Notes under the pieces: model-generated
Seen by the model: only the letters and a program-made list of their open reading frames with translations
Told to the model about the DNA's origin: nothing
Database searches by the model: none
Translations under genes and position numbers: made by a program
Part shown: positions 8,550 through 58,947 of the stretch, one piece after another
How the letters are laid out: every line of letters starts with the position of its first letter
Numbering within the stretch: the stretch's first letter is position 1
DNA from: Bdellovibrionota bacterium
GTDB taxonomy: Bacteria; Bdellovibrionota_C; UBA2361; OMII01
Length of the DNA: 64,000 bases
NCBI GenBank assembly: GCA_044351885.1
Contig: JBILEW010000004.1
Location: 10,155 to 74,154, forward strand
Direction of reading: 5' to 3'

Positions 8550-8867
8550 GATGGTTTCTCCACTATACTCCCAGGAGAATGCTAAGCCTCCCTAAGCTTT
8601 CATTCGAAAAGCGAAGTAACCGGATTGTGACATGGATTCAGAGACTAACCCACCTGTTTTAAGTTGGGGTGGTCGCATGCAAGCCCTCCTACGGATAAAA
8701 AGGCTTTGAATTTGCCATGTTAAATCAAAAACAGGCACATCGGATGCTGTATGCGGCCGGGGGGCCTCACACAGGCCCATGTCTCGTGTCATTTAACTAC
8801 CTCGAAGGTCAGGTCTAAAGAGTCGCTTAAGTACGTCTACAGACCAGAGCGACCCAACTTCTATCGT

Positions 8868-9491
8868 ATGACAGTATCGGATGTAGTCTTCATTCAGCTG
8901 CTTTTGTGGCTGGGATTCTATCTCATTATAGCAGGGGGGGCAGGTGTCATTACTGGCGCCCGCTGGGTGCATCAGAGCCCGATCGTATTTCATCGTCCAG
9001 CGATATACATCCTCGTTGGAGGTTTGCTACTTCACGACGTTTTGGTGATGACACTCGGAGAGCCGATTACCTATGCGCTGATTGTTCCTTTGGTGCTGTG
9101 GGTCATATATGAGACGGTCCATCCTTTCATCGTCGCATCGGTCGGAATAACGGGCACCAGGCCCGAGACGATCGAAGACGATCTTCAGCGGGCTTTTTCC
9201 GAACTCAAGGTTCGCTATCGCGGCACGTATCCCAGTTATGATCTCCTGGACGATAACGCCCAGGTAAGGGTCAAATATTGGAAGGGGATGGAGGAGGGAC
9301 AGCTCACGATATCCCCAGCTTCCAAACGATATCTGCTTACGAAGATTTTGGAGATAGTGGACAAGAAATCGAAGTCCGAGGAGCAGGCGAAAGCGTCACG
9401 GGCATTTATCCTCGACCTTCTGGTCGGATTTCTGTTAATCGTTTTTGCTGCGTGGCAGATCTCTATGAAGGTGTATCCTTCAACGCCTTAA
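8868..9491 (+). CDS. integral membrane protein, function unknown
   Basis: Several hydrophobic helices, for example FIQLLLWLGFYLIIAGGAGVI and LDLLVGFLLIVFAAW. I moved the start to ATG 8868. Confidence 0.5.
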   Translation: MTVSDVVFIQLLLWLGFYLIIAGGAGVITGARWVHQSPIVFHRPAIYILVGGLLLHDVLVMTLGEPITYALIVPLVLWVIYETVHPFIVASVGITGTRPETIEDDLQRAFSELKVRYRGTYPSYDLLDDNAQVRVKYWKGMEEGQLTISPASKRYLLTKILEIVDKKSKSEEQAKASRAFILDLLVGFLLIVFAAWQISMKVYPSTP

Positions 9492-10770
9492 TAGCCCCAG
9501 TAAACGGAGCCGGATCGAAACGCTCAGAGCTCGCGAGGGTAGCAAATACCTTGTCGAGAGCCGCCTTGTGGCGCTTCCCGAGAGTTGGCGAAGAGGCGAG
9601 TACTGCTTGAATACCCATGGTGATCTGTTCCGCTATTTCGTACGTAGGCGCAGGATTTCGGGCTGAAAACGAAACTAAACTTTTCAGGAGCGCGGCACAG
9701 GTTGTTTCGTCTGCCGAAATACGCGCGACGAGTGCTGTCACTTGACCATCAAAAAGCTGGGAGAGCGTCCCCAACGCCGCGGGGGCACCATCCTCCTGAT
9801 ACGAGTCGTGGACTATTTTCATTTGGGTCGTGATGGTCGACGCTAGCGATGGGTCGAGCGCTCCCAAAGCCTCCTGGAGGATGACGAGAGAGGGGAGGTT
9901 TACTTTCAGTCGTCCCGGCTTTCCTCCGTACGTCCTGTGCTTCCACTGCTTCTCAGTGAGGCTGTGGTGGCAAGAGAAACAATCAAAGGTGCTCAACTCT
10001 GGGAACTGTCCCTTTTTGACGCGCTCGGGGTCGCGGAGAACACGTAATGCCTCTCGGGCATGTGTAGCTTGTCCAACGAGCCATGCTCGCACTGGAATGT
10101 ATGCCTCCTTCCGTTGTACGTAATCCTTGTCGACCACCCAATGTTTAGGTTGGAGGACTCCGAAGGTGTCGAGCTCGAAGGTCAGCCGGGGGTGTCCAGC
10201 ACCGTAGAGATCGTGGCTGACCCACTTATTCTTGTCGCCCTGATGACACGACAAGCACATGGTTGCTCGCTCGGGAAGTGGAACGATATTGGCTAATCCA
10301 TTAGCCAGATTATCTTTGTGCGTCGCCTCCGAGTCCGTGTGCGTCGAGAGCCATTTTTCCGCAGCACCGTGACACGATTCGCACGAAACTCCGTCCTCGA
10401 TCTGAAACTTCTCGCCGCGCAAGGACTCCTCGGGAACGTAGGTAGCATGGCATTCGAGGCACAAACGATCTTTGGTCGCATCAGCGATGCCGAGGAGACT
10501 CGCCATCCGCTTACCATCCTCGTTACGCAGCACCGAGTAGGCTCGGGAGTGTTTGTCGTGCTTCAGCCAGGTGTAGTACTCGTTCTGTAAGACAGGCGAT
10601 CCTGTGAGCGGCTTCACGCTACCGTGACAGTTCGAACTTGAGCACGAGCCGACCCCCATGAAGCGCGCGTTGGTATGCGTCGGCTCTGCAGAAGCGCTAG
10701 CCATCAAAAGCACAAAGGAGGCGAAAAAGAGGGCGTGAAAATTATAAAAACGTTTGACTCTGTCCGTCAT
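9463..10770 (-). CDS. secreted multihaem c-type cytochrome (4 CxxCH + 1 CxxxxCH)
   Basis: Signal peptide FFASFVLLMASASA. Haem motifs CSSSNCH, CLECH, CESCH, CLSCH and CFSCH. Confidence 0.8.
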   Translation of the reverse strand: MTDRVKRFYNFHALFFASFVLLMASASAEPTHTNARFMGVGSCSSSNCHGSVKPLTGSPVLQNEYYTWLKHDKHSRAYSVLRNEDGKRMASLLGIADATKDRLCLECHATYVPEESLRGEKFQIEDGVSCESCHGAAEKWLSTHTDSEATHKDNLANGLANIVPLPERATMCLSCHQGDKNKWVSHDLYGAGHPRLTFELDTFGVLQPKHWVVDKDYVQRKEAYIPVRAWLVGQATHAREALRVLRDPERVKKGQFPELSTFDCFSCHHSLTEKQWKHRTYGGKPGRLKVNLPSLVILQEALGALDPSLASTITTQMKIVHDSYQEDGAPAALGTLSQLFDGQVTALVARISADETTCAALLKSLVSFSARNPAPTYEIAEQITMGIQAVLASSPTLGKRHKAALDKVFATLASSERFDPAPFTGAIKALKDTPS

Positions 10771-10985
10771 AATACTCTGTGCGCTGATTATAAACGCAGG
10801 GCTGCTCGAAATGAGGGCCCATAGGTTCGTTGTCTACACGATTTGTAAGCACTTGTTCAGCTTTTTCTCAGAAAGAAATTGATTCACCTCGTACTGAAAT
10901 TTATATTCAGGCCCGTCATCGGCGACTCTAATGTTTTCTTACGAGAGAATCGAGAGAGTTTTGAGCCGTTCTTCTCTACGGGAGC

Positions 10986-13328
10986 ATGCCAGAACATTAC
11001 GAGATAGCCATAATCGGCGCTGGGCCTGGGGGAATAGGCGCCGCAACGAATGCGGCACACTACAAGATGCCTCACGTGCTCTTCGAGAAGGGCCAGATCG
11101 CAAACACCATTTACGATTACCAGCTTCGTAAGCATGTCATGGCTGAGCCGGGGCGCTTGCCGCTCCGCGCACGGTGTCGCTTCGAGGAGGGAAGTAGGGA
11201 GGAGATCCTCCAAGCTTTCGCCGAGGACTTGAAGACCTCTGGTACCAACTTCGTGAAGGGCGAGGTTGCGAAGATCGTAAAGACGAACATCGGTTTCGAA
11301 ATCCATCACTCTGGTGGGCTTTGCACGGCAAAATACGTTGTCCTCGCTTCTGGAGTGCAGGGTTCGCCGAGAAAGCTCGGAGTTGGCGGCGAGGAGCTCC
11401 CACACGTAGCCTACACACTCGCTGACCCGGGAGCTTTTAACGGCCGTAACATAATCGTCGTTGGAGCAGGAGATGCCGCTATCGAGAACGCTCTCGCGCT
11501 CATGGAATCCAATACTGTTTTCCTCGTCAATCGAGGTGGCGAGTTTGCGCGAGCCAAGGACGCCAACGTAAAACGTGTGCAAAACGCCATCCAGTCAGGT
11601 GCGTTGAGGTGTTTTTTCAACGCGACACTTGCTCGAATTGAGTCGCAGGTTACCTACGTCAACACTCCAGAGGGAGAGGTATCCGTTGCATGTGATCATA
11701 TCATAGCGCGCCTGGGGTGCGTCTTGCCGCGGAAGTTCATCGAGTCGATGGGGATTCAGTTTCCCAATTCCGAGCCGACGGCCGTACCTGTAGTTAGCGA
11801 GAAATACGAGTCGAACGTTCCCGGGCTCTTCATCGTAGGCGCTCTTATCGGTTACCCCCTTATCAAGCAGGCCATCAATCAAGGCTACGAGGTTGTGGAG
11901 CATATAAGGGGTAATGCGATTCAACCGGCGGACCAACCCTTACTCGAGGAGCGCTTCGCGCATCTACCGGGTGCGTGGGCCGAAAACTTCCCCAAAATAA
12001 CCAAAAATGTGCCGCTCTTTGCAGACCTCAGCTCGCCACAGCTGAGAGAGATGTTGATCGATTCGAGCATACACCTGTTTCAACCCGGCGGTGTGGTGTT
12101 CGAGAAGAACGACTTCACCGATACGTTTTGGAGCGTCGTATCTGGAGCGGTCGAGGTCGAGATCGACGAAGACAAAAAGGTGGTTCTCGGGCAGGGGCAG
12201 TTCTTCGGTGAGATGGGTCTCATTTCCGGAAGGCGGCGTGTGGCCACGGTACGGGCGGCCACTGCCGATACGCTGCTGCTCGAAACCCCGCGCAAGCAGA
12301 TGCTCAAGTTGATAGCGTCCGTAAACTCGGTTCGGCGTGCGCTCGACGAGGTCTTTATCGTTCGCATCCTTCAATCGAGCATATTTCCCGAGGTAGATCA
12401 GTCGTTCCTTCAGGCGCTTGCCAAGCGCTTGAAGATGCAGAACTTCAAGAAGGGTGATGTGCTCTTCTCGGAGGGAGATATCGGAGACAAGTTGTACGTA
12501 ATCCGTAAAGGATCAGTGAAGATCTCCCGCCGCAACAGGGCGGGCGTCGATGTCGCGCAAACGTATATTCCCGCTGGTCGATATGTGGGAGAGATGGCGC
12601 TCTTGAGTGAGCGAGACACCCCTCGATCTGCTACCGTTTCCGCCGCCGTAGCGTGCGAGACGATCGTCATCGAAAAGGGCGATTTCCTCGAGATAGTGCG
12701 CGAGTTCCCCCGCGAGCGCGCGCGTATCGAGCGTTTGGTCGAAGAGCGCAAGATCGAGAATGTCACAGCAGATCTCGGGGAGGCTTCGGGAACTCTGCTG
12801 GATTTTATGTTCAAAGAGGGCCTCTCCGACGCCGACAACGTACTTCTTATCGATTCAGATCGATGTATAGCGTGTGACAACTGCGAGGCTGCGTGCGCAG
12901 CGACGCATGATGGTTATTCACGCCTGGATCGCAAAGGGGGGAAGAGTCTGGCGACGATCCAGATCCCGATCTCGTGTCGACACTGCGAGAACCCGCTGTG
13001 CATGACCGACTGTCCTCCGGATGCGCTCACGCGTATGCCCAACGGAGAGGTCGTTATTCGTGATTCATGTATCGGGTGTGGTAACTGTGTAGGAAACTGT
13101 CCTTACGGGGTCATCAAGATAGTCCACGAAAAGGTGGGCAAGGTGCGATCACTGTTCGCGTGGCTCGGATGGGGAACTGCAGAGGAAGGTCCTGCCAAGG
13201 CGGCGAAATGCGATCAGTGTCACGACTTGAAGGGTGGACCTGCTTGTGTGAGGGCGTGCCCGACCGGGGCCGCCATGCGCGTGAACTCGGCGCGCCTCAT
13301 AGAGATCGCTACGTCAAAAAGGGTGTAA
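10986..13328 (+). CDS. FAD/NAD(P) oxidoreductase (thioredoxin-reductase fold) fused to 2 cNMP-binding domains and a 4x[4Fe-4S] ferredoxin module
   Basis: IAIIGAGPGGIGAA and IIVVGAGDAAIENA form the dinucleotide folds. FFGEMGLISGRRRVATVRA and YVGEMALLSERDTPRSATVSA mark the cNMP-binding domains. The Cys clusters are CIACDNCEAAC, CRHCENPLCMTDCP, CIGCGNCVGNCP and CDQC...CVRACP. Confidence 0.85.
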   Translation: MPEHYEIAIIGAGPGGIGAATNAAHYKMPHVLFEKGQIANTIYDYQLRKHVMAEPGRLPLRARCRFEEGSREEILQAFAEDLKTSGTNFVKGEVAKIVKTNIGFEIHHSGGLCTAKYVVLASGVQGSPRKLGVGGEELPHVAYTLADPGAFNGRNIIVVGAGDAAIENALALMESNTVFLVNRGGEFARAKDANVKRVQNAIQSGALRCFFNATLARIESQVTYVNTPEGEVSVACDHIIARLGCVLPRKFIESMGIQFPNSEPTAVPVVSEKYESNVPGLFIVGALIGYPLIKQAINQGYEVVEHIRGNAIQPADQPLLEERFAHLPGAWAENFPKITKNVPLFADLSSPQLREMLIDSSIHLFQPGGVVFEKNDFTDTFWSVVSGAVEVEIDEDKKVVLGQGQFFGEMGLISGRRRVATVRAATADTLLLETPRKQMLKLIASVNSVRRALDEVFIVRILQSSIFPEVDQSFLQALAKRLKMQNFKKGDVLFSEGDIGDKLYVIRKGSVKISRRNRAGVDVAQTYIPAGRYVGEMALLSERDTPRSATVSAAVACETIVIEKGDFLEIVREFPRERARIERLVEERKIENVTADLGEASGTLLDFMFKEGLSDADNVLLIDSDRCIACDNCEAACAATHDGYSRLDRKGGKSLATIQIPISCRHCENPLCMTDCPPDALTRMPNGEVVIRDSCIGCGNCVGNCPYGVIKIVHEKVGKVRSLFAWLGWGTAEEGPAKAAKCDQCHDLKGGPACVRACPTGAAMRVNSARLIEIATSKRV

Positions 13329-13331
13329 TCG

Positions 13332-14150
13332 GTGGATGGCGATACCTTCATAAGTTACCGGCGGTTTCGATGGCTGTGGATTACGCTCGCGGCACTCGTC
13401 GTGTGTACTGCCGTTTATCTGATCGATGATCCTGTCGGCGGAAGAAACGGCGGCACTGTCGTGGGATACACCCTTGGTGTAGTGGCGACCCTAGCTATCG
13501 TATGGTTGATGACGTTTGGCATGCGTAAGCGGGCCTATGCCTCGAGTCTCGGGACGCTCGAAGGATGGCTCGCAGCTCACGTATGGATCGGAATCGGCTT
13601 GCTACTGCTCGTGCCGCTCCATGCCGGTTTCAGCTACGGTTGCAACATCCATACTCTGGCATACGTTCTGATGGTCCTTACGATTGTGACGGGGATCTGG
13701 GGAGCCATGAATTACTCTCGGCTCTCTTCGCAGATCGAGTCTCACAGAGGCGGATTGAAAACGGACCGTATCCTCGAGCAGATTCGATCCCTAGACGGAG
13801 AGATCGAAAAGCTGATAGCTACAAAGAGCGACGCATTTCTGAGTTTCGTGAAGCATCTTGATTTTTCGCTCAAGCCGAATCTCCGACTATTGATGCGACC
13901 CGGAGCGGTTGTTGGTATCGATACAAAGCAGGCCACAGACTCGATTCTTTCGTTGCCCGAAACCGAGCGGAGCGATGCTTTGAGTGTATTGGGGCTTATC
14001 GATCAGAAGAGCGATCTATCGAGGATCGTGGTTCGGGAGAGTCACATCAAGATGTTGTTGCGAGTGTGGCTCTTTGTTCATGTGCCGGTGTCCGTTGCTC
14101 TCTGCGGTGCCGTGGCGATTCACATCTTCTCTGTCTTTTTCATGTGGTAG
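13332..14150 (+). CDS. polytopic membrane protein with conserved-looking His in TM helices (possible b-type cytochrome subunit)
   Basis: GTG start 4 nt after the upstream stop. TM segments contain LAAHVWIGIGLLLLVPLHAG, NIHTLAYVLMVL and LFVHVPVSVALCGAVAIHIF. The haem-b role is inference only. Confidence 0.6.
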   Translation: MDGDTFISYRRFRWLWITLAALVVCTAVYLIDDPVGGRNGGTVVGYTLGVVATLAIVWLMTFGMRKRAYASSLGTLEGWLAAHVWIGIGLLLLVPLHAGFSYGCNIHTLAYVLMVLTIVTGIWGAMNYSRLSSQIESHRGGLKTDRILEQIRSLDGEIEKLIATKSDAFLSFVKHLDFSLKPNLRLLMRPGAVVGIDTKQATDSILSLPETERSDALSVLGLIDQKSDLSRIVVRESHIKMLLRVWLFVHVPVSVALCGAVAIHIFSVFFMW

Positions 14151-14156
14151 GTCGGC

Positions 14157-15830
14157 ATGTTTCGTCACGTACAAGAGAGGCTCTCACGAAACGGCTCGAT
14201 TGAGCAGCTTTCCACGGATTTTTCGGTATCCGAGCTTGTTGTCGGTCGTGGTGGTCGGTCGAGCATAATCCTCTCAAGTCGGGAAGTTTCGCTCGAGCAC
14301 GCTCTGTTCAAGTGGGAGAATGGGGTTGTTTCGGTGACGGATCTCGATTCTTTGAATGGGGTCCGGGTAAACGGCAAGAGAATTTCCCGGACCGTTTTGA
14401 GCGCCGGCGACCAGGTTCAGCTCGGAGATATGGGGTTTCGTGTCGAGCTCGCCGACGCCGTCGTCTCGCTCGTTCAGCGGCTCGGAGGAGAGTCGAGTAC
14501 GTCACGGGAAAAGACGGAAGTAGGGGCGGCGGAGGCTATTCGAAAGCTGCGTATCGACAGCTACCTTCCGCCGATGCGAGTACTTAGCTATGCGGCGCTC
14601 ATTTTGGTGGTCGGAATCTTTTTTGTTCGGCCTATGTTCACGAGACACAGCTTGTCCTGGAGCAGTGGCCCGATCTCGAACAGTCACAAGCTCATTGCTG
14701 CAGATTGCACTCGGTGCCACTCGATGCCCTTCACGCACGTTCCAGATAAGGAGTGTCAGTCGTGTCACTCGATGAGTGAGCACACGAAAGACATGGCGCA
14801 GTTGACCTCGCATCATCCGGACATGACGTTTCGATGCGGGCAGTGCCACATGGAGCACAACGGTGACGGTGCTCTGATATCGCGAGATTCCCGTTTTTGT
14901 GTGCAATGTCACTCCTCGATAGGAGCATTCAAGCAGAACCCGAGCATCGAGAACGTAGCGAGCTTCGAGGATCATCCGCAGTTTCGCGTTGCGGTATCCG
15001 AACCCTCGGGTCGATCGATTAGGGTGCCGATCGACGATCAGGCTCGGGCGAAGGACTCGACACCGATCAAGCTCAATCATGCGGTGCACCTCAAGCGTGG
15101 ACTCAGGGGAAAAAACGGCCCGGTCACCTTAGAGTGTAGTTCGTGCCACGAACTCGATCGGGATTTTCGTGTAATGAAGCCGATCCGCTACGAGCAGCAC
15201 TGCGCGGATTGTCATACCCTCGGATTCGACGAACGGCTGCCGAATGCACAGGTACCGCATGGTGATGCAGAGGGCGTGTACGCAGCTCTCTTTACGGAGT
15301 ACACGAAGCTCTTCTTGCTCAAGGAGGGGCCAATGTCGATTCAGTTACCAAAAGACAGGGAGATGCCTAAGGGTACAAAAGGTACCTCCGTGACCCCTCC
15401 CGTGCTTGATACCACTGCGATCGCGGCAAGTGCGCGTGATGCAGAGCGGCAGCTCTTCACGAAGACGGCATGCTTCGAGTGTCACAATGTAACCGAGAAG
15501 CCTGCCTCTGAGCAGAACGATAGTAATTCGCACTATCGGGTCCCCCCACCCCATATCCCGAACGTATGGTACTCCGCTGCTCGTTTCAGTCACGGTGCTC
15601 ACGAACCGTTTGCGTGTGAGTCCTGTCACCAGGGCACCCGTAAATCGACCAAGACAAGCGATCTTTTGCTTCCCGATATCTCCAACTGTAGAGAGTGTCA
15701 CGTGCAGCAGAATAAGCCTGGGTTCGTCACATCGGATTGTGTGTTGTGTCACTCGTATCACGTTTCTGAGAGCGTTCCGCACGGTGATAAGAAGGATATC
15801 ACAGAGTATCTTAGCGGGCTGACGAGGTAG
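14157..15830 (+). CDS. FHA domain - TM - decahaem c-type cytochrome
   Basis: FHA signature VVGRGGRSSIILSSREVSLEHALF...DLDSLNGVRVNGKRI. One TM helix (LSYAALILVVGIFFV). Ten CxxCH motifs follow. Confidence 0.85.
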   Translation: MFRHVQERLSRNGSIEQLSTDFSVSELVVGRGGRSSIILSSREVSLEHALFKWENGVVSVTDLDSLNGVRVNGKRISRTVLSAGDQVQLGDMGFRVELADAVVSLVQRLGGESSTSREKTEVGAAEAIRKLRIDSYLPPMRVLSYAALILVVGIFFVRPMFTRHSLSWSSGPISNSHKLIAADCTRCHSMPFTHVPDKECQSCHSMSEHTKDMAQLTSHHPDMTFRCGQCHMEHNGDGALISRDSRFCVQCHSSIGAFKQNPSIENVASFEDHPQFRVAVSEPSGRSIRVPIDDQARAKDSTPIKLNHAVHLKRGLRGKNGPVTLECSSCHELDRDFRVMKPIRYEQHCADCHTLGFDERLPNAQVPHGDAEGVYAALFTEYTKLFLLKEGPMSIQLPKDREMPKGTKGTSVTPPVLDTTAIAASARDAERQLFTKTACFECHNVTEKPASEQNDSNSHYRVPPPHIPNVWYSAARFSHGAHEPFACESCHQGTRKSTKTSDLLLPDISNCRECHVQQNKPGFVTSDCVLCHSYHVSESVPHGDKKDITEYLSGLTR

Positions 15831-15844
15831 TAGTAGGGAGTCTT

Positions 15845-17821
15845 ATGAAGAGGGGCATACTCTGGAGAGTGACGGCATCAGCGCTCGTGGCGTTTGGTTC
15901 GGGCTGCGGTGGTGGAGGATCGGGTTCCGGAGGCTCGCAGAGTGGTGGTTCAGCCGCAGCTAATTTCGGCTGTGACGGTAATTGTCCGAGTCAAGCTCTC
16001 GCTGTAGAGGAGGTCGAGCGGATCCTCCAACAGGGTGTCGCTGCTTCGAAGACTAAGGGTGTGGCTAGTACGATTGCAGTCGTTGATCGAGTAGGTAACG
16101 TACTGGCGCTCTATCAGATGTCGGGAGCTTCCACTACTACGACTATTCAGGGGATGATCGGTGCGCAAGGCGGACTCGAAGGAGTTGCCGTTCCGGCCAC
16201 TTTAGCGGCGATCTCCAAGGCCGGTACGGGAGCCTATCTGAGTTCTCAGGGAAATGCGTTCTCGACCAGAACGGCTAGCCAGATCATTCAGGAGCATTTT
16301 CTGCCGGGTCAGAAAAATCAACCGGGAGGCCCTCTGTTTGGAGTGCAGTTCTCTTCGCTTCCGTGCGGTGATGTAGTCGTCCACAATCCATCGCTCGCAG
16401 CAGGTGGGCTCGGAGGCAAGGAGAAAGCGGGAGGCTCTCTCGGGCCACGCCCAATGCCACTGGGCTTGTCCGGTGATCCAGGAGGGCTTCCGATCTACAA
16501 GAACGGCGATCTCGTGGGAGGGATCGGCGTCGAGTTCAACGGTGTCTATACAGTTGATCGTGATGTGTTCGATTTCGACACTGATGGCGAAGAAGAGGTA
16601 GCTCTTTCGGCGAGCGTCGGGTTCGAAGCTCCTGCAGAGAGGACTGGAGACAACGTCTTCGTTGCTGGCCGCTCACTTCGATTTGCGGATGTGGGATACA
16701 GCGATGTGGGTACGTCCGAGGAAGGCCTCGAGCCTTTGGACATGACGGGATTGAAGGCAGAGCCGCTCTATGCACGAGCGGAGATCCGTGCGGGGGTTCC
16801 CTTTGGAACGGCCGCATCGGGTGTCGCCAACACCGTACGAGCTGGACAGCCGGCTGCGATCCTCGTCAATAGTGGTGGAGGCTCGCGATTTTCGAGTCGC
16901 GGCGGTCGCGCACTACCGGGTGGAGTGGAGCTCAAGTCTTCGGAGGTGGAGGCGCTTTTGGACGCTACGCTCCTCACGGCCTACCGCTTACGAGCTGCAA
17001 TTCGTACACCGCGAGACACTGCAGCTAGAAATTCTATCTTTATCGTCGATGACAGGGGAACTGCGCTTGGCTTCATTCGTTCGCAGGATGCGCCGGTGTT
17101 CAGCATCGATGTGGCTCTGCAGAAGGCGCGCGGTGCTGCGCTCTTCAGCGCGCCGGATGCGGGAGCAAAACTCACGCAGGCGTTTGTCTCCTCTGGCGGG
17201 GGCTTCGCTGTCAATTATGCTGCTGCATACAGCGCCTTCACGGGAGGCGGTGCCTTGGATGGTTCGCACGCCTTTGCGTCTCGGTCCGTGGGGAATCTTG
17301 CACGACCGTTCTTCATCGATGGTATTGAGGGCCGACCAAACGGTCCATTTTCTCTCCCCTTTCCCGGAACAGCACCTGGGCGCTCGTGGAGTCCGTTCAA
17401 TACAGGCTTGCAGCTTGATCTGATTTTGGGCGGGATAGTTACGCCTATCCTTAATCCTGGGGTGGTTCCGAATAGCTGCGCCAACTCGTCGGTGTTCGGA
17501 GCGCTCGGGCGTAACGGTATTCAGATATTCCCAGGGGCTGTGCCTCTGTACCGCAACGGTGTGCTCATCGGTGCTATCGGAGTGAGTGGAGATGGTATCG
17601 ATCAGGACGACATCATCGCGTTTTATGGCGCGAGCAGGAGCGGCTTGGACTACGCAGGACACACCGCAGTTGGAGATGCCACGCTCGGCTTCAACGCCCC
17701 TCCCGAGATTCGAGCGGATACGATCGAATTTCCCCAGCCGGATTCGAGGGTGCGCTACGTGAACTGTCCTGAAGCTCCCTTCCGGGGCGAGAACGATCAA
17801 AACGTGTGCGAGGGTCTCTAA
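15845..17821 (+). CDS. lipoprotein with two GlcG/DUF336 (haem-binding/haem-degrading-like) domains
   Basis: Lipobox LVAFGSGC followed by a Gly/Ser linker. IAVVDRVGNVLALYQMSGA and IFIVDDRGTALGFIRSQDAPVFSIDVALQKARGAALF resemble DUF336 cores. Confidence 0.6.
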   Translation: MKRGILWRVTASALVAFGSGCGGGGSGSGGSQSGGSAAANFGCDGNCPSQALAVEEVERILQQGVAASKTKGVASTIAVVDRVGNVLALYQMSGASTTTTIQGMIGAQGGLEGVAVPATLAAISKAGTGAYLSSQGNAFSTRTASQIIQEHFLPGQKNQPGGPLFGVQFSSLPCGDVVVHNPSLAAGGLGGKEKAGGSLGPRPMPLGLSGDPGGLPIYKNGDLVGGIGVEFNGVYTVDRDVFDFDTDGEEEVALSASVGFEAPAERTGDNVFVAGRSLRFADVGYSDVGTSEEGLEPLDMTGLKAEPLYARAEIRAGVPFGTAASGVANTVRAGQPAAILVNSGGGSRFSSRGGRALPGGVELKSSEVEALLDATLLTAYRLRAAIRTPRDTAARNSIFIVDDRGTALGFIRSQDAPVFSIDVALQKARGAALFSAPDAGAKLTQAFVSSGGGFAVNYAAAYSAFTGGGALDGSHAFASRSVGNLARPFFIDGIEGRPNGPFSLPFPGTAPGRSWSPFNTGLQLDLILGGIVTPILNPGVVPNSCANSSVFGALGRNGIQIFPGAVPLYRNGVLIGAIGVSGDGIDQDDIIAFYGASRSGLDYAGHTAVGDATLGFNAPPEIRADTIEFPQPDSRVRYVNCPEAPFRGENDQNVCEGL

Positions 17822-17833
17822 AGGATAGGGAAG

Positions 17834-19627
17834 ATGATCCGACGCACCGGAGCCGCACTGTGTACCTCTCTGTTGCTGAGCGTTATGTTCGGTACGGTGG
17901 TTCCTGCGTGCATCGTCGGATACGCTGAAGAACCTTCTGCTGACGAGCACGCGTCTCCGGCGCAGACATCAACCGAGGAGCTTGAGTTTCAGCGTCAGGT
18001 ACCGGGAGAGGAGAAGGAGAACTTTCCCGGATACATCTACGAATCGATCCCACCGATTGAGAACTCAGCATCTGATTTCGTTCCTGTACCTGACCGTTGG
18101 CGTATGTTCTATGCCGGTAAGTGGTACGATCCGTACAATCAAAATGTTCTCAAGGGAGATATCCCGGTCTTCGGCGCACCGGGACACGAGTGGTTTTTAG
18201 AGGTATCCGTCATCTCCGATTCGATGTTCGAAGCCCGTCGGCTTCCGATCCCAGTGGGTTTTGCCTCTACCAATAGGAGCAGTAGCAACGACGTATTCGG
18301 AGGTGGTGATCAGACAGCATTCGTCGAAAACGTCGTAACCTCCATATCGTTTATTCGAGGTAATACGACCTTCATGCCGCCAGAGATTGAGGTGCGGGTT
18401 GCTCCGGTGTTCAATGTGAACCACGTGAGAGCTGAAGAGAACGGAGTGCTGAAAGCTGATCCTGCGTACGGAAATACTCGAACTGACAGCGCCTTCGGGT
18501 TTCAGGAGCTTCTCGCAGACATACACCTTGCCAATCTCTCGGATCGCTATGATTTCGTTTCGAGTCGTTTGGGTATTCAGCAGTTCAATAGTGATTTTCG
18601 TGGATTTCTTTTCAACGACAACGAGCCAGGCGCTCGCTTCTTCGGTAACTACGACGACAACAAGACCCAGTTCAATCTGGCGTGGTTCTCGCGCCTCGAC
18701 AAAGACACGAATTCGGGGGTGAACACCTTCAGAGACCGTCACGAGGACGTGTGGGTCGCGAATGCTTATCGGCAGGACCTTCTGTGGCTTGGACATACGG
18801 TCACTGCGAGTGTGGTGCACCGTGAAGATACCGCTGGAAACAACGGATACCGGTACGATGACAACAACTTCCTCGTGCGTCCTGCTGCTATCGGCGATGA
18901 ACGACCGAAGAATATCTACTCGACTTATTTAGGCCTCGGCGGCGATGGTCATGTTGGGCGCGTCAACACGACCACGCAATTTTACTACGTATTCGGTTCC
19001 GAAAGTCACAATGCGATTTCCAACCGGCAGGTCGACATCAGCGCAGAGATGTTCGCACAGGAGTTCTCGTACGATATCGACTTTGTGCGCTTCCGAACCT
19101 CGTTCTTTTGGGCCTCTGGTGACAAGGATCCCTACGATGGTACCGCACAGGGATTCGATGCGATCTTCGACAATCCGAATTTCGCCGGTGGCGATCTCTC
19201 CTTCTGGCAGCGTCAGGCGATTCCGTTCATTGGCGGTGGCGGAACGAACCTCGTCAACCGAAACAGCTTGCTTCCTAATTTCAGACCAGGAAAGGAGTTA
19301 GGTCAGTCGAACTTCGTTAATCCAGGTCTGCGACTGTACAACGTGGGGATGGATGTCGAGGTACTGCCGGAGCTCAAGCTCGTCACGAATGTGAGCTATC
19401 TCCAGTTCGATCAGGTAGGGCCGTTGGAGGTTGCGAGGCAGGACGGCTCTATCAGTCAGGATATCGGAGTGGATCTCTCGGCAGGTGTGATCTATCGGCC
19501 ATTCCTCAACAACAACGTGCAGATTAGGGCTGGAGCGGCGTGTCTGCTGCCAGGTAACGGTTACAAAAATCTATTCGGTGATAGGGTCAATTACGACGTG
19601 TTTACTAATCTGATCCTGCAGTACTGA
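17834..19627 (+). CDS. probable outer-membrane beta-barrel protein
   Basis: Signal peptide. Alternating aromatic/polar strand-like composition. C-terminus reads ...VFTNLILQY, ending in an aromatic residue. Its stop overlaps the next gene's start (TGATG). Confidence 0.5.
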   Translation: MIRRTGAALCTSLLLSVMFGTVVPACIVGYAEEPSADEHASPAQTSTEELEFQRQVPGEEKENFPGYIYESIPPIENSASDFVPVPDRWRMFYAGKWYDPYNQNVLKGDIPVFGAPGHEWFLEVSVISDSMFEARRLPIPVGFASTNRSSSNDVFGGGDQTAFVENVVTSISFIRGNTTFMPPEIEVRVAPVFNVNHVRAEENGVLKADPAYGNTRTDSAFGFQELLADIHLANLSDRYDFVSSRLGIQQFNSDFRGFLFNDNEPGARFFGNYDDNKTQFNLAWFSRLDKDTNSGVNTFRDRHEDVWVANAYRQDLLWLGHTVTASVVHREDTAGNNGYRYDDNNFLVRPAAIGDERPKNIYSTYLGLGGDGHVGRVNTTTQFYYVFGSESHNAISNRQVDISAEMFAQEFSYDIDFVRFRTSFFWASGDKDPYDGTAQGFDAIFDNPNFAGGDLSFWQRQAIPFIGGGGTNLVNRNSLLPNFRPGKELGQSNFVNPGLRLYNVGMDVEVLPELKLVTNVSYLQFDQVGPLEVARQDGSISQDIGVDLSAGVIYRPFLNNNVQIRAGAACLLPGNGYKNLFGDRVNYDVFTNLILQY

Positions 19628-22600
19628 TGGTGGTAAGGATGAAGCTGCGACACAGAAATCCTGATCGGTCATTCCTTGCTCGTTCTCTCGTGGGGCTGGG
19701 TTCGTTGCTGATATCGGTCTATGTCCTCGGTCTCGTAGTATACGTGCAGGCGGACGAGCACTACGATTCGATCGTCAAATCCGGCGGTTCACCTGAGAAG
19801 ATGGAGGAGACGAGTCGGGGTTGCGTCGATTGTCACACAAAGACTGATGCTCCTACGATGCACACGAATCCGGGTGTCCATATCGGTTGCGCGGAGTGCC
19901 ACGGGGGTAATCCCGAGGTGCGGGCGCAGGGGCTTGCGACCGGTACCGCCGACTATGAGAGTGCCAAGAAGAGCGCGCACGTACTTCCGAAATACCCCGA
20001 GAATTGGCCTTCATCGGCAAATCCAAAACACTCGTACTCGGAGCTAATCAAGGAACCTGTCGAGTTCGTGCGTTTTATCAATCCGGGGGATCTCAGAGCA
20101 GCACCTTCAGCGTGCGGAGGGTGTCACTCGGAGATAGTCGATGCCACCAAGAGAAGCCTCATGACGACCTCGGCGATGCTGTGGGGCGGTGCTGCCTACA
20201 ACAACGGTATTCTTCCGTTCAAGCGTTACATACTCGGTGAGAGTTACACGACCGACGGAGAGCCTGCGAGTATCGTTCACCACAAAGATAAGCCGGTTAC
20301 TCCTGCCATGGCGGCTCGGGGAGTGCTCGAGAAACTCTTGCCGATGCCGACCTGGGAAGTCCTTCCTCCTGCGGACATCTTCCGTATCTTCGAGCGTGGA
20401 GGACTCTTCGTTAAGACCCAGTTTGCCGAGGTGGGTAACCCTAATCCACTCGAGGACTCGGGAAAGCCGGACGTAAAAGCAGGTAACCGTGGTCCTGGTA
20501 CTGGCAGTCGTATCGCCGTGCCGGTGATAAATATACACAAGACACGCCTCAATGATCCGCACCTGAGCATGCTCGGAACCAACGATCATCCGGGTGACTA
20601 TCGGAGTAGCGGATGTACTTCCTGCCATACCATCTATGCTAATGACCGAGACCCAGCGCATTCCGGGCCGTATGCGAAGTACGGGAATGAAGGAAAGTCT
20701 ATAACGCAGGATCCTACTATCCCCAAAGACGAAGAGGGACATCCGCTGCAACATGCCTTCACGCGAGCGATCCCGACCAGCCAGTGCATGGTGTGTCACA
20801 TGCACCAACCGAACATGTTCGTGAACACCTTTCTCGGGTACACGATGTGGGATTACGAGGCGGATGCCCCGGCGATGTGGCCGGAGAAGCAGAAGTATCC
20901 GACGATGGAGGAGTACTATAAATCTTTGGAGCACAATCCCGAGGAAGCAGCGGTGCGTGGTAAGTGGACGGATCTTGACTTCTTGAAGCGGGTCTCTGAA
21001 CTCAATCCGCAGCTCAAAACTACTCAGTTTGCCGATTATCACGGACACGGATGGAACTTCAGGGCTGTATACAAGCGTGACAGGAAGGGCAACCTGCTCG
21101 ACAAGGACGACAAGGTCGTGTCTTTCGAAGATCCGCAGAAATTCAAGAAAGCGGTGCATCTCCAGGATATCCACGTAGATTTCGGCATGCAGTGTGTCGA
21201 CTGTCACTTCGGACAGGATACGCACGGTGACGGAAATATCTACGGGGAGGTTGCACAATCGGTCGAGATTATGTGCGAGGATTGCCACGGCTCGGTATCG
21301 CAGCGCGCAAGCTTGAAGACCTCTGGACCTGCAGCGCCGGAGGGCGGACACGATCTTTCTCTCAAGCGTACCCCGTGGGGAGAGCGTCAATTCATCTGGA
21401 AAGACGACGGGCTGTATCAACGCTCTCTCGTAACGAAGGATCTGGAATGGCGCGTGAAGCAGGTCCGAGACTCATTGGATCCTAAGAGCCCGGATTATAA
21501 TGCGCGATCAGCGAAGGCCAAGTTGGTCAAGAAGCTGGAGGATGGAGCGACTCAGTATACGGTTGCCAAGCCGGGAGATGTCGCTACTGCGGCGGGAGAG
21601 GCGGCGTTGGCGCACCCGAACTCGGACATGTCGTGCTTTGCTTGTCATAGCTCTTGGACTACTGCATGCGCCGGATGCCACCTTCCGATTCAAGCGAATT
21701 GGAAGAAGACTTCCAATCACTACGAGGACAAGGAGACCCGGAATTGGGCAAGCTACAACCCACAAGTTGCTCGGGACGATATGTATCAGCTCGGGAGGCA
21801 CGGTCCTGCCAAGAACGGCAAGATAGTTCCGATCCGTTCATCGAGTGCGCTCATATTGAGTTCAACGGATGTCAATCGTCAGAAGATCTATTTTCAGCAA
21901 CCACCGACATCATCTGCAGGGTACAGCTCGCAAGCCTTTGCCCCGCATTTCCCACATACGGTGCGCACAAAGGAAACCAAGGGTTGTAAGGATTGCCACG
22001 TATCGAAGGAGAACGACAACAACGCCATCATGGCACAGCTCCTCTTGCTTGGTACGAATTTCGTCAATTTCATGGGCTACTACACCTGGGTAGCAACCGG
22101 CGATGCGGGGCTCGAAGGGGTTCAGGTTACCGAGTGGAGCGAGCCGCAGGCTGTGATTGGAAGCTACCTTCATAGGTATGCCTACCCGGATTTTTACGCA
22201 GCGCATCAATCTCGTGGTGGTGAGCTCGAGGAGAGCCATCGGCATCACGGGGCCGGAGGTGCTACCACTGTAGTGCAGCTCCGAGGTGAGTATCTCTACA
22301 CCGTTGCCGGTTCCGGTGGTTTCAGGGTCTACGACGTAGCGAATATCGCCAATAAGGGGTTCTCGGAACGAATAGTAACGAGCCCGGTCTCACCGCTCGG
22401 ACAAAACATTCACGTCGCGACCTCTGATGCCACCGGTTTGGCACTTCCGACGAATATGCCGGTAGCTCCCTTTAAGAAGCAGTTGCCAGAAAATCTCGAA
22501 ACCCCGATGCATCCGATCTATCACTACGCATTCATATCGGATCGTGTGGAAGGTTTGATCGTCGTCAACGTCGATACGTTGCAGGACGGCGAGCCGCGCA

Positions 22601-23367
22601 ATAACTTCTTGGAGCGAGCGCTGACGTGGAACGAGAACGGGGTCCTGACTGGAGCGCGCACGATTACCCTCGCGGGAGCCCGCGCGTTCATCGGTACCGA
22701 AGATCGCGTGGTTGTGTTGAGCCTCGATGATCCCTTGGCACCTAAGGTCGAGGCTACGTGGCCAGCCAACAAACCCTCAGGTGTCGCGATTCAGTTTCGC
22801 TACGCTTTCATGACCGATAGTGAAGGATTTCACGTTATCGATATGACGCACCCTGACAAGCCTCGCGTCGTATCGTCAGCCTCGATAGCACTCCCGGATG
22901 CGCGAAATGTGTACGTGGCTCGTACCTATGCGTACGTAGCCGGTGGAAAGGAAGGGGTAGTGATAATCGATGTAGAGAAGCCTGAGCAACCGCAGGTGTA
23001 CATGAAGTACAATTCTGATGGAGCTCTCAATGACACCTATGACGTTAAGGTCGCAACGACCAACGCAAGCCTGATCGGTTATGTTGCCGATGGTGTTAAT
23101 GGACTGGTCGTATTGCAGCTTACAGATCCGGAAAGGGTACCGGGTTTTTACGGATTCTCTCCTGCTGTCAAACCGGCGGTGATCGCAACGAAGCGTATGG
23201 CTGGAGTTGCGATGGGTATTACGAAGCCTCTCGACAGAGATAGAGCAGTTGACGAGACGGGTCATCAGGTAAGTGTTCTCGGTCGTATCGGCTCGCGTCC
23301 ATTCAATCTCGAGGAGATGCGGCGCATGTTCTTGACGAAGGACGGCAAGGTGTGGAGCGTCGACTAG
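19627..23367 (+). CDS. 1246-aa membrane-anchored decahaem cytochrome with C-terminal LVIVD-like beta-propeller repeats
   Basis: N-terminal anchor LVGLGSLLISVYVLGLVVYV. Ten CxxCH motifs lie in the first ~800 aa. The C-terminal repeats are GFRVYDVANI, GLIVVNVDTL, GFHVIDMTHP, GVVIIDVEKP and GLVVLQLTDP. Confidence 0.8.
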   Translation: MVVRMKLRHRNPDRSFLARSLVGLGSLLISVYVLGLVVYVQADEHYDSIVKSGGSPEKMEETSRGCVDCHTKTDAPTMHTNPGVHIGCAECHGGNPEVRAQGLATGTADYESAKKSAHVLPKYPENWPSSANPKHSYSELIKEPVEFVRFINPGDLRAAPSACGGCHSEIVDATKRSLMTTSAMLWGGAAYNNGILPFKRYILGESYTTDGEPASIVHHKDKPVTPAMAARGVLEKLLPMPTWEVLPPADIFRIFERGGLFVKTQFAEVGNPNPLEDSGKPDVKAGNRGPGTGSRIAVPVINIHKTRLNDPHLSMLGTNDHPGDYRSSGCTSCHTIYANDRDPAHSGPYAKYGNEGKSITQDPTIPKDEEGHPLQHAFTRAIPTSQCMVCHMHQPNMFVNTFLGYTMWDYEADAPAMWPEKQKYPTMEEYYKSLEHNPEEAAVRGKWTDLDFLKRVSELNPQLKTTQFADYHGHGWNFRAVYKRDRKGNLLDKDDKVVSFEDPQKFKKAVHLQDIHVDFGMQCVDCHFGQDTHGDGNIYGEVAQSVEIMCEDCHGSVSQRASLKTSGPAAPEGGHDLSLKRTPWGERQFIWKDDGLYQRSLVTKDLEWRVKQVRDSLDPKSPDYNARSAKAKLVKKLEDGATQYTVAKPGDVATAAGEAALAHPNSDMSCFACHSSWTTACAGCHLPIQANWKKTSNHYEDKETRNWASYNPQVARDDMYQLGRHGPAKNGKIVPIRSSSALILSSTDVNRQKIYFQQPPTSSAGYSSQAFAPHFPHTVRTKETKGCKDCHVSKENDNNAIMAQLLLLGTNFVNFMGYYTWVATGDAGLEGVQVTEWSEPQAVIGSYLHRYAYPDFYAAHQSRGGELEESHRHHGAGGATTVVQLRGEYLYTVAGSGGFRVYDVANIANKGFSERIVTSPVSPLGQNIHVATSDATGLALPTNMPVAPFKKQLPENLETPMHPIYHYAFISDRVEGLIVVNVDTLQDGEPRNNFLERALTWNENGVLTGARTITLAGARAFIGTEDRVVVLSLDDPLAPKVEATWPANKPSGVAIQFRYAFMTDSEGFHVIDMTHPDKPRVVSSASIALPDARNVYVARTYAYVAGGKEGVVIIDVEKPEQPQVYMKYNSDGALNDTYDVKVATTNASLIGYVADGVNGLVVLQLTDPERVPGFYGFSPAVKPAVIATKRMAGVAMGITKPLDRDRAVDETGHQVSVLGRIGSRPFNLEEMRRMFLTKDGKVWSVD

Positions 23368-44149: not shown

Positions 44150-45061
44150 CTAGGTGTCAAAGCTTTCTTTACACCCTTGGAAGTGCTGGATGACTGTTTC
44201 GAGGAACGAAGAGCCCCCCGTTCCATCGAAGTTCAACGACAGGCCTAATCCTGTGGCGAGGCAGCTTATTTCTTCGGCATCACATGGGTATCCCTGTAGG
44301 CTCCCTATGCCTGAGTGGTGACAGAGCAGCTCTGCGAGTTGCACAGCTGCAATCCTCGCTTCGTGTGCATCGTCGAGCGGGAAATCGATTGGGTCTCTAT
44401 AGTGTAGGATCGCACGTACCACGGAGGGTGGCAGATCCCATTTCTTGGCTACTAGGGCGCCGACATACGTGTGCGTTACGCCGAATACTCGTCGCTCTGC
44501 TTCGAGGAACTCTACCCCAGTCGTACTGATGACATCGAGCACCCGCTCGAACAGAGCTACTCTGGCAGGTTCCGTAAGTAATACCAACTGCCCCAAATTG
44601 TGAAGGAGTCCGAAGATGAAGACTTCACCGGGGCTCTGCATTTTGAGCTTCGTAGCAATCCGATATGCGCACAGCCCGGTAAAGAGCGAGCGTTGCCAGA
44701 TCATCGAACGCAGCTCTTCGTTGGCTGCTGTCAGTCCTTGAAGCATTGAGGCAGCGATGATTCCCTGCAGCCCACGGGTGCCGATCACCATGAATGCTTG
44801 AGATAACGTTGAGATCTGTCTTTGTCTCAAAAAGACAGGTGAGTTAGCTACTCGCAAGATACGAGCGGTCAGGGCAGGGTCCTGACCGATTACCTCTTCC
44901 AGCAGCTCCAACGACACGTGCGGTTGGTTAAGAATCGCCATCGCGCGAGAAGCACATGGTGGAAGTGGCGGTAGGTTGCCGACCCAGGCAACGATCTCCT
45001 TGAGAAGAGCGTAATCCAGTCCTTCGGGGTTCGGTATCAAGTTCAATACAGAATGTTCCAT
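44150..45061 (-). CDS. HDOD domain protein
   Basis: LPPLPPCASRAMAIL...EVIGQDPALTARILRVANSPVF...ISTLSQAFMVIGTRGL...GLLHNLGQLVL. Confidence 0.85.
   Translation of the reverse strand: MEHSVLNLIPNPEGLDYALLKEIVAWVGNLPPLPPCASRAMAILNQPHVSLELLEEVIGQDPALTARILRVANSPVFLRQRQISTLSQAFMVIGTRGLQGIIAASMLQGLTAANEELRSMIWQRSLFTGLCAYRIATKLKMQSPGEVFIFGLLHNLGQLVLLTEPARVALFERVLDVISTTGVEFLEAERRVFGVTHTYVGALVAKKWDLPPSVVRAILHYRDPIDFPLDDAHEARIAAVQLAELLCHHSGIGSLQGYPCDAEEISCLATGLGLSLNFDGTGGSSFLETVIQHFQGCKESFDT

Positions 45062-57543: not shown

Positions 57544-58947
<1,404 letters not shown>

Follow-up and report, generated by a model that had tools for sequence, protein, structure and literature searches.

In which direction, and to what end, would electrons cross the cell envelope in a gene cluster that combines a cytoplasmic flavoprotein with three multihaem cytochromes and a probable outer-membrane barrel? 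The question is raised by a 64,000-nucleotide stretch of DNA (the window) from a metagenome contig (JGI 3300059473) of a Bdellovibrionota bacterium, in which six same-strand genes spanning 10986-23367, here named G1 to G6 in order, are preceded by a divergent cytochrome gene, named cytA (Table 1). An earlier note on this DNA had read the seven genes as a regulated trans-envelope electron conduit, with a logic resembling that of the porin-cytochrome (Mtr/Pcc) systems. The analysis described below establishes that the cluster is real and widespread, and that it stands out among multihaem envelope electron-transfer systems by an unusual input, built-in regulatory domains and a new terminal family of decahaem/propeller proteins. 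The genes probably serve a regulated electron path that spans the envelope, although the evidence does not favour a conduit of the Mtr type through the outer membrane. We tentatively propose a two-module redox machine, in which a chain gated by cyclic nucleotide monophosphates (cNMP) would lead from NAD(P)H to the periplasm and on to a periplasmic or outer-membrane-associated decahaem enzyme; the chance that this proposal is right is, in our estimate, only a little smaller than the chance that it is wrong.

The seven open reading frames (ORFs) were reproduced at the coordinates first given for them, and a script returned gaps of 3, 6, 14 and 12 nt between successive genes from G1 to G5, a 1-nt TGATG stop/start overlap between G5 and G6, and a distance of 215 nt between G1 and the divergent cytA. 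The domains and haem counts of the earlier note were likewise recovered, the domains with Pfam and NCBIfam, and one refinement, in cytA, is described below. The products cover the envelope as that note had claimed: a flavin/iron-sulfur (FeS) protein lies in the cytoplasm; the inner membrane would hold a protein with two in-register His pairs as well as a decahaem protein whose N-terminus faces the cytoplasm and whose haems face the periplasm; further out come a lipoprotein, the probable outer-membrane barrel and a secreted decahaem protein. For comparison with other genomes, we scanned one genome per GTDB species with a G5 profile, which yielded 262 confirmed loci, 80 of which were kept and searched by tblastn with the seven window proteins; gene order was scored in the 57 loci that extend at least 7.5 kb upstream of G5. 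G1, G2, G3 and G4 were all found in 53 of these 57 loci, G1 to G6 were co-linear on one strand in 51, and cytA lay inside the locus in 45 of the 53 loci holding all of G1-G4. The ORFs that flank the cluster in the window were kept, among the 80 loci, in the nearest relative only. Co-linearity across phyla combined with unconserved flanks argues that the cluster is not a product of chance and supports the view that the seven genes are one co-conserved unit; a lack of co-conservation in related genomes, which the earlier note had named as a ground for refuting its reading, is decisively excluded. The two flanking ORFs, the first of which overlaps the 3′ end of cytA by 29 nt in convergent orientation, mark the edges of this unit.

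Table 1. Positions of the cluster genes and of other features discussed in the text (window coordinates unless a related locus is named)
Feature	Position	Strand	Description
cytA	9463-10770	-	435-aa secreted, soluble c554-like cytochrome c; haem-free C-terminal domain of ~170 aa
cytA-G1 intergenic region	10771-10985		215 nt; presumed to hold both promoters
Sigma-70-like match	10879-10907	+	
G1	10986-13328	+	780 aa, cytoplasmic; flavin adenine dinucleotide (FAD)/NAD(P)H domain 1-310, tandem cNMP-binding domains ~340-590, ferredoxin domain 619-779
G2	13332-14150	+	272-aa membrane protein; five transmembrane segments by hydropathy
G3	14157-15830	+	557 aa; FHA domain 28-90, one transmembrane helix 136-162, periplasmic domain with 10 CxxCH
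G4	15845-17821	+	658-aa lipoprotein; lipobox GSGC, Cys21, Gly at +2
G5	17834-19627	+	597-aa probable outer-membrane protein; signal peptide, aromatic C-terminus (…LILQY)
G5 N-terminal extension	17996-18193	+	Residues 54-120
G6	19627-23367	+	1246-aa secreted protein; 10 CxxCH in residues 66-787, LVIVD beta-propeller ~865-1200
Upstream flanking ORF	8751-9491	+	246 aa; no Pfam match; found only in L002
Downstream flanking ORF	23484-25271	+	595 aa; no Pfam match; found only in L002
Signalling genes	28886-33052(-), 37257-40121(-), 44150-45061(-), 53751-55196(-), 55234-57627(-), 60369-62480(+)		
Decarboxylase-domain ORF	40440-43304	+	954 aa; Orn/Arg decarboxylase domain ~538-780
Extra ORF between G3 and G4	L067 7768-8178; similar positions in L051-L057 and L061-L066		~147 aa; not in window (gap 14 nt)
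Metallophosphoesterase gene	L082 15572-16420		Directly 3′ of G3

Hosts of the cluster were found in Bdellovibrionota, Alphaproteobacteria (SAR116, Rhodospirillaceae, Thalassobaculaceae and Nisaea), Gammaproteobacteria and metagenome-assembled genomes (MAGs) of Spirochaetes. The closest genomes are MAGs labelled 'Bdellovibrionota bacterium', with 92% identity in G5 for one of them (L002), and the window G5 protein is encoded also on a Logan-assembled contig (L001). Bacteroidota were rejected as hosts, because the contig concerned, from a 'Pedobacter' MAG (L072), is nearly identical to that of a 'Moraxellaceae' MAG (L060); the two G3 sequences are nearly the same, and at least one of the two contigs is probably mis-binned. 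The L060 locus shows a circular permutation (G2-G3-G4-G5-G6-cytA-G1) on a single strand, in which all seven genes are kept together. In Sphingobium herbicidovorans MH, a cultured aerobe that carries the genes on its ~1-Mb megaplasmid pMSHV (L082), they are split into two convergent operons, the first consisting of G1-G2-G3 followed by a metallophosphoesterase gene and the second of cytA-G4-G5-G6. This split suggests that the cluster is made of an inner module (G1-G3) and an outer module (cytA and G4-G6). The names given by the Prokaryotic Genome Annotation Pipeline to the Sphingobium genes are generic, the G4 orthologue being a 'heme-binding protein', and G6 is carried by many cultured sphingomonads under the labels 'LVIVD repeat-containing protein' or 'multiheme c-type cytochrome'.

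The proposed input of the chain is G1, which has no signal peptide and begins directly at a GxGxxG Rossmann motif. Pfam and NCBIfam recognized Pyr_redox_3 (4e-34), two cNMP_binding domains (2e-38) and a HydN-like four-cluster Fer4 region, and the relatives of solved structure were the cyclic nucleotide-binding (CNB) domains of protein kinase G (PKG; 8e-28), YpdA/Bdr (1e-21), HycB3 (1e-19) and ferredoxin-NADP reductases (FNR) of the thioredoxin reductase (TrxR) type. The flavin domain is nearest to YpdA/Bdr and the TrxR-like FNRs. The CxxC redox motif of thioredoxin reductases was not found in residues 1-320, and the only partly conserved cysteines of the flavin region in 50 orthologues, C209 and C236, belong to no motif; the domain therefore resembles the YpdA or TrxR-like FNR types. 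Inserted between the flavin and FeS parts, the tandem CNB domains resemble CNB-A/B of PKG and of the regulatory subunits of protein kinase A (8e-28). Both phosphate-binding cassettes are canonical (FGE..GL..GRRRxAT and GEMAL…PRSAT) and at least 90% conserved at Gly-Glu and Arg-x-Ala-Thr in the same 50 orthologues, so that the cassettes, as judged from their residues, are intact. The C-terminal domain resembles HycB/HydN with four [4Fe-4S] clusters, and all 16 of its FeS cysteines are invariant (50 orthologues).

The step across the inner membrane would fall to G2. Alignments of 52 and of 17 orthologues show two invariant His pairs, His83/His97 in the third transmembrane (TM) helix and His250/His264 in the fifth, with a spacing of 14 residues in each; His107 is invariant as well. 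The positive-inside rule would place the first His of each pair (His83, His250) close to the cytoplasm and the second (His97, His264) close to the periplasm, at matching depths in the two helices. Bis-His pairs on two TM helices are the classic arrangement for two stacked b-haems, as in cytochrome b, b561/FdnI and the NOX/FRE proteins, and the pattern predicts that G2 is a di-haem b cytochrome. TM4 and TM5 are separated by a helical insert of ~110 aa, for which a cytoplasmic location is predicted. Weak matches to Ni_hydr_CYTB (PF01292) were obtained for 14 of 17 orthologues, the best at 8e-7, and to Ferric_reduct (PF01794) for 3 of 17, and the window copy scored 17.7 bits against a cut-off of 30.1 with the di-haem b family profile. 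A profile search with G2 found no sequence relative in the PDB. These matches, although below threshold, would fit a divergent member of the Ni_hydr_CYTB/b561/Ferric_reduct superfamily.

G3 contains an FHA domain (Pfam E 1.7e-15), whose nearest solved relatives are the phospho-Thr readers GarA and OdhI, and ten CxxCH motifs, all 20 haem cysteines of which are invariant in 51 orthologues. Haem c is attached on the periplasmic side by cytochrome c maturation; this, together with the single TM helix, places the haem domain outside and the FHA domain inside the inner membrane. We propose that G3 is a membrane-anchored haem wire. The window copy of the FHA domain has all signature residues (G30 R31, S45 xx H48 and N72 G73), and across the 51 orthologues Gly-Arg is kept in 100%, Asn(-Gly) in ~90%, His in 76% and Ser in 39%. 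Of the built-in signal-reading domains described in the earlier note, those for cNMP have canonical and conserved cassettes; phospho-Thr reading is weakened, the window copy being canonical but the key Ser being lost from most orthologues.

From G3, electrons could reach the outer components through cytA, which we propose to be a periplasmic shuttle between G3 and G6. The protein has four CxxCH motifs, and a fifth motif, Cx4CH (C43-x4-C48-H49), was found to be invariant with them in 38 orthologues, which raises the probable number of haems to five. The protein matches Cytochrome_C554 in Pfam (3.5e-12), and its only sequence match in the PDB is the Nitrosomonas c554 (E 0.003). With ten haems each in G3 and G6, the motifs imply 25 c-haems in total, or 27 haems when the two b-haems of G2 are added; all of the CxxCH motifs in the three proteins are invariant; a lack of such conservation was a further ground for refutation named in the earlier note.

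The kinship of cytA with c554 bears on a scheme of opposite polarity, in which G6 would oxidize a reduced substrate, either periplasmic or imported, such as Fe(II), Mn(II), reduced sulfur or nitrogen species or reduced organic matter, and electrons would enter by way of cytA, G3 and G2 to quinone, with G1 as a regulatory or side branch. Lithoheterotrophy is common in the host groups. The path would resemble that from hydroxylamine oxidoreductase (HAO) through c554 and cM552 to quinone, c554 being the only solved relative of cytA, and G2 resembles the quinone-reactive cytochrome b561/FdnI family. For a gene trio of like architecture in Ferrigenium, a link between Fe(II) oxidation and quinone has been proposed (bioRxiv 10.64898/2026.01.22.701106). 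The scheme, however, leaves the always-fused and conserved cytoplasmic NAD(P)H/FAD domain and the four-cluster ferredoxin unexplained, and no quinone-site motif was identified in the proteins. Moreover, carrying electrons inward from ordinary periplasmic donors as far as NAD(P)+ would mean a climb in redox potential as well as work against the inside-negative membrane potential. Inward entry is improbable in our estimate, and the energetic argument is our reason for preferring outward flow, which would be favourable on both counts but would spend both reducing power and membrane potential; such a cost would explain the position of a PKA-like cNMP switch between the flavin and FeS parts and that of an FHA dock on the membrane partner.

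Where the electrons would go depends on G5 and G6. For each, the protein collection contains homologues in the thousands, which carry either no name or the label 'hypothetical'; an exhaustive profile search at E≤1e-30 gave 538 clusters at 50% identity for the G5 family. G6 is the most conserved component, with 54-61% identity to orthologues from Alphaproteobacteria, Gammaproteobacteria and Spirochaetes. Cross-phylum identities in the tblastn comparison descend from G6 (~57%) through G5 (~47%), G1 (~46%), G4 (~41%), cytA (~38%) and G2 (~35%) to G3 (~29%), a gradient that would fit a constrained catalytic end joined to a looser wire. The ten CxxCH motifs of G6 are widely spaced, and Pfam and NCBIfam detected c3/c7-type motifs and LVIVD repeats in the protein, which has no lipobox. 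Extreme conservation and widely spaced haems are what lead us to regard G6 as a candidate catalytic terminus. No sequence relative of G6 was found in the PDB by single-sequence or profile searches and no match to NrfA or Cytochrom_C552 in the profile libraries; a local similarity to ExtM is below threshold (6.8e-23, 80.8 bits against a cut-off of 800). In an AlphaFold2 model, the propeller is well predicted (pLDDT, the predicted local distance difference test score, ~90), and a Foldseek search with it returned generic propellers of seven or eight blades only.

G5 gave no Pfam or NCBIfam match (E≤0.01) and no sequence match in the PDB. Its AlphaFold2 model, which is of low confidence (pLDDT 51.6), consists entirely of beta-hairpins with ~18-20 long antiparallel strands, and Foldseek matched it to outer-membrane barrels only, with AlgE (18 strands; 2.5e-9) followed by MOMP, OccK/OprD and OmpK36; MtrB was not among the 50 matches listed. 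The model thus agrees with the barrel that had been suspected from the sequence of this gene and, within its low confidence, depicts an AlgE/OprD-like rather than an MtrB-like protein. An N-terminal extension of ~60 aa (…FVPVPDRWRxFYAGKWYDPYNQNVLKGDIPVFG…) is near-invariant across phyla and mostly unstructured in the model; it could plug the barrel or serve as a peptide on which G6 or G4 docks. The G5-G6 junction measures -1 to +13 nt in most loci, and the two genes are probably coupled in translation. On the strength of its AlgE/OprD-like fold and this probable coupling, G5 would be the outer-membrane partner and substrate channel of G6.

The same pair of proteins could be read differently, as a conduit of the Mtr/Pcc kind in which a part of G6, or cytA, would sit inside the G5 barrel and exchange electrons with partner cells, humic substances or insoluble minerals outside the cell. 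The genes for a barrel, a lipoprotein and decahaem proteins are indeed neighbours, G5 and G6 are probably coupled in translation, and the unusual conservation of G5, with its invariant N-terminal extension, would suit close contacts between proteins. Weak matches to domains II/IV of MtrC/MtrF were seen in 11 of 20 G6 orthologues, and a porin-cytochrome reading was favoured for a related cluster by the authors who described it (bioRxiv 10.1101/2023.11.21.568154). G5 has no MtrB_PioB match, however, and its best folds are channels of ~18 strands against the 26 of MtrB; CxxCH motifs are lacking in the lipoprotein G4, as is a lipobox in G6. Surface cytochromes such as MtrC and OmcA typically evolve fast, and G6 is far more conserved than is usual for them. 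Finally, the hosts are mostly aerobic planktonic or soil heterotrophs (SAR116, Sphingobium). The Mtr/Pcc logic put forward in the earlier note, with a cytochrome through the barrel, is weakened by the folds matched by G5 and by the conservation of G6, and we consider a conduit of this kind unlikely.

G4 carries two GlcG/HbpS/EfgA-like (DUF336) domains, with HbpS-like Pfam matches in three stretches (4e-20), EfgA as its closest solved structure (2e-7), four invariant cysteines and zero CxxCH motifs. Since the HbpS/PduO-C/GlcG family binds haem and corrinoids, G4 invites the idea that the cluster acquires tetrapyrroles or iron: G5 would import haem, corrinoid or chelated Fe(III), G4 and the G6 propeller would bind it, and haems fed by NAD(P)H would reduce it so that the metal is freed or assimilated, as a two-membrane analogue of the FRE/FRO ferric reductases of eukaryotes. 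The combination of NAD(P)H, flavin and di-haem b follows ferric-reductase logic, the hosts live in oxic waters that are assumed to be iron-poor, and the first Foldseek match of the G6 propeller is BtuG1, a B12-binding surface lipoprotein. That match, however, is one of hundreds of generic propeller matches of similar score, 25 c-haems would be a high price for taking up iron, the neighbourhood holds no conserved TonB-dependent receptor or ABC importer, and no conserved Fur box was found in a crude scan of 51 upstream regions. Acquisition is therefore a very improbable function. G4 also enters into a reading of the cluster as a redox sensor, in which the haems would not carry a metabolic flux but would signal periplasmic redox conditions to the cytoplasm, with the FHA and cNMP-binding domains as outputs. 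HbpS is the partner of a redox-stress sensor and EfgA is a formaldehyde sensor, and the cluster combines signalling domains (FHA and CNB) with GlcG/HbpS-like domains; yet the conserved unit contains no kinase, cyclase, DNA-binding or other output domain, and FAD/NAD(P)H, four FeS clusters and 27 haems far exceed the equipment of known sensors, so that we give this reading hardly any credence.

Taken together, we propose that in the inner module electrons from NAD(P)H would first reach the FAD and the four [4Fe-4S] clusters of cytoplasmic G1, then cross the inner membrane by the two stacked b-haems of G2 and enter the ten c-haems of membrane-anchored G3, a route that would bypass the quinone pool or at most branch to it. 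In the outer module, the pentahaem cytA would carry them from G3 to the ten c-haems of G6, where the decahaem/beta-propeller protein, seated on G5, would form the catalytic end; the porin-like barrel of G5 would admit or release the substrate of G6, and the GlcG/HbpS-like lipoprotein G4 would be an accessory. The tandem cNMP-binding domains of G1 and the FHA domain of G3 could act as the gate or dock by which the chain is switched on. The analysis shows the gene content, the co-conservation, the cofactor motifs and the topology, and from these we infer the order of the transfers, their outward direction, an enzyme in G6, a channel in G5 and the gating. Several points weigh against this proposal. 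Its direction is one that sequence cannot give. Relatives of Ni_hydr_CYTB such as FdnI usually interact with quinones, and by this kinship G2 may connect to the quinone pool instead of being a pure wire. The phosphate-contacting Ser of the FHA domain is kept in just 20 of 51 G3 orthologues. In two loci (L033 and L034), G4-G6 are present and the inner module is absent within ~8 kb, so that the two modules need not be physically linked. The cytochrome region of G6 is unfolded in the AlphaFold2 model (pLDDT 20-30), which leaves conservation as the sole ground for calling the protein an enzyme, and the G5 model is the low-confidence one described above. Barrels of 20 strands, moreover, might be wide enough for a haem domain, an arrangement suggested for the Pcc porins of Geobacter.

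The intergenic region between cytA and G1 told us little about the control of the cluster. Matches of the sigma-70 type, among them the one in Table 1, were no commoner there than in shuffled sequence, a terminator scan likewise gave no more matches than shuffled sequence, and the crude scan of 51 upstream regions revealed no shared CRP box. A box of the FNR/CRP type (TTGAT-N4-GTCAA with one mismatch) lies ~169 nt upstream of G1 in four loci of one alphaproteobacterial subgroup only (L051, L053, L056 and L057); the window has the TTGAT half-site only, at ~10879. Outside the cluster, the window is rich in signalling genes. Two of them encode kinases, namely a CHASE4 hybrid histidine kinase and a TPR-containing Ser/Thr kinase; two others encode class III adenylate/guanylate cyclases, of which one has HAMP and the other CHASE2; and the remaining products are an HDOD protein and an MscS-type channel that binds cNMP. 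These cyclases and kinases indicate that the host has genes for cNMP and phospho-Thr signals. None of the signalling genes is conserved beside the cluster in other genomes, and the flanks of the related loci share no kinase, cyclase, TonB or type II secretion genes; besides the alphaproteobacterial ORF mentioned below, the additional neighbours are sporadic HD-domain or metallophosphoesterase genes. In Sphingobium, a second metallophosphoesterase gene lies upstream in addition to that 3′ of G3; the latter, whose product could be a phosphatase or phosphodiesterase tied to FHA or cNMP regulation, is not kept in other lineages. An extra ORF with a signal peptide lies between G3 and G4 in 14 loci, all alphaproteobacterial. 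Elsewhere in the window, the ORF with an Orn/Arg decarboxylase domain has an N-terminal extension of ~500 aa without a match.

Large multihaem systems are normally tied to anaerobic metal respirers or lithotrophs; here, a 27-haem system fed by flavin and FeS is kept in aerobic heterotrophs that are abundant in lakes, ocean and soil, with an input that is apparently cytoplasmic NAD(P)H, not quinol, and with built-in cNMP and FHA modules. If the proposed wiring is true, the cluster would represent a hitherto undescribed, regulated way for reducing power to leave the cytoplasm, and a new family of decahaem enzymes. A more specific version would make it a two-membrane bacterial counterpart of the eukaryotic NADPH oxidase (NOX)/ferric reductase, that is, a second-messenger-gated chain of FAD, four [4Fe-4S], two haem b and 25 haem c, that exports electrons straight from NAD(P)H, without the quinone pool, to decahaem/beta-propeller enzymes of a new family located at the outer membrane. 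We regard this version as rather unlikely. Were it true, the cluster could supply the enzymes so far missing for the NAD(P)H-dependent reduction chemistry outside cells (superoxide, Fe(III), Mn or organic matter) that is reported for oxic waters, a role that is possible given its occurrence in abundant aerobic bacterioplankton (SAR116 and lake Bdellovibrionota) and in sphingomonads. Among its cultured hosts, Sphingobium herbicidovorans MH and Novosphingobium sp. Chol11 are examples that are open to genetic work.

How, then, does the cluster compare with known systems? With Pfam and NCBIfam, no component reached the threshold for membership in Mtr, Pcc, Hmc, Qrc, Nrf, Dsr, ACIII or Ext systems, all matches being local and sub-threshold, with that of G6 to ExtM as the best, so that none belongs to a characterized respiratory complex, as the earlier note had supposed. 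The profiles of the MtrA/DmsE and OmcA/MtrC families (TIGR03508 and TIGR03507) match cytA only, with 23 bits (cut-off 192) and 16 bits (cut-off 209), and NrfH/NapC-type matches of G3 are far below threshold (18 bits against 134). MtrCAB, PioAB/MtoAB and the Geobacter Pcc/Ext systems resemble the cluster in combining a gene for an outer-membrane barrel, decahaem cytochromes and a lipoprotein, with electrons crossing the envelope. By contrast, the lipoprotein of the cluster is haem-free, its barrel resembles AlgE/OprD channels, and its input is an NAD(P)H flavoprotein with a di-haem b protein instead of a quinol dehydrogenase (CymA, ImcH or CbcL); no gene for a quinol dehydrogenase of the NapC/NirT, ImcH or CbcL type is present in the conserved unit.

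Functional analogies can be drawn with several other systems, without any claim of membership. NOX/FRE/STEAP and the bacterial Fre-MsrQ-MsrP share the path from cytoplasmic NAD(P)H and flavin to the opposite side of the membrane through two b-haems, whose His ligands come in pairs spaced by 13-14 residues on two TM helices. The cluster differs from them in the weak Ferric_reduct/b561 scores of G2, in a flavin domain with the TrxR/YpdA fold instead of the FNR fold, and in the addition of four FeS clusters, two CNB domains and 25 c-haems. In the HAO-c554-cM552 relay, a multihaem enzyme, a c554-type shuttle and a membrane-anchored multihaem protein act together; cytA matches c554 only weakly. In formate dehydrogenase-N, the four-cluster ferredoxin FdnH is docked on the di-haem b561-type subunit FdnI, whereas here the four-cluster domain is cytoplasmic and fused to a flavoprotein, which would amount to an inverted arrangement.

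The closest parallels come from two preprints. The ptdABCDEFG operon, named from marine Alphaproteobacteria of oxygen-deficient zones and described as having a 'completely unknown' function, encodes an NrfA-like pentahaem protein with a beta-sandwich (PtdA), a porin, an FAD/NAD(P) oxidoreductase (PtdC), a tetrahaem protein (PtdD), a cNMP-binding 4Fe-4S protein (PtdE), a ferric-reductase-like TM protein (PtdF) and a decahaem protein (PtdG) (Elbon et al., bioRxiv 10.1101/2023.11.21.568154). Compared by description at the domain level, PtdD would correspond to cytA, PtdC plus PtdE to G1, where they are fused, PtdF to G2 and PtdG to G3, and a porin is found in both. The ptd operon differs in lacking the GlcG/HbpS lipoprotein and the ~1250-aa decahaem/LVIVD protein, and an FHA domain is not mentioned in the preprint; conversely, neither the cluster in the window nor the 80 related loci with their flanks showed an NrfA-like pentahaem protein or an additional multihaem ORF. 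In Ferrigenium straubiae, the 'NHC' trio consists of adjacent genes for a [4Fe-4S] protein, a 5-TM protein and an FHA-TM-nonahaem cytochrome, and its authors noted that FHA-multihaem fusions were previously unreported (bioRxiv 10.64898/2026.01.22.701106). By description, its architecture, order and adjacency are those of G1-G2-G3, but it has nine haems instead of ten, FAD or cNMP domains are not mentioned in its description, and it adjoins nirK and SHP genes, not a G4-G6 module. Literature searches that combined LVIVD with multihaem, Bdellovibrionota with extracellular electron transfer, sphingomonads with LVIVD, and SAR116 with decahaem yielded no characterization. The claim of the earlier note that no characterized system has this composition thus stands as far as characterization goes, but an inner module of the same architecture had already been noticed in the two preprints; the G4-G5-G6 module and the combination of seven genes appear to be undescribed. 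That the same inner-module architecture occurs beside other terminal modules in both preprints supports the modularity of the system, and the function of the cluster, once established, would also explain the ptd and NHC clusters.

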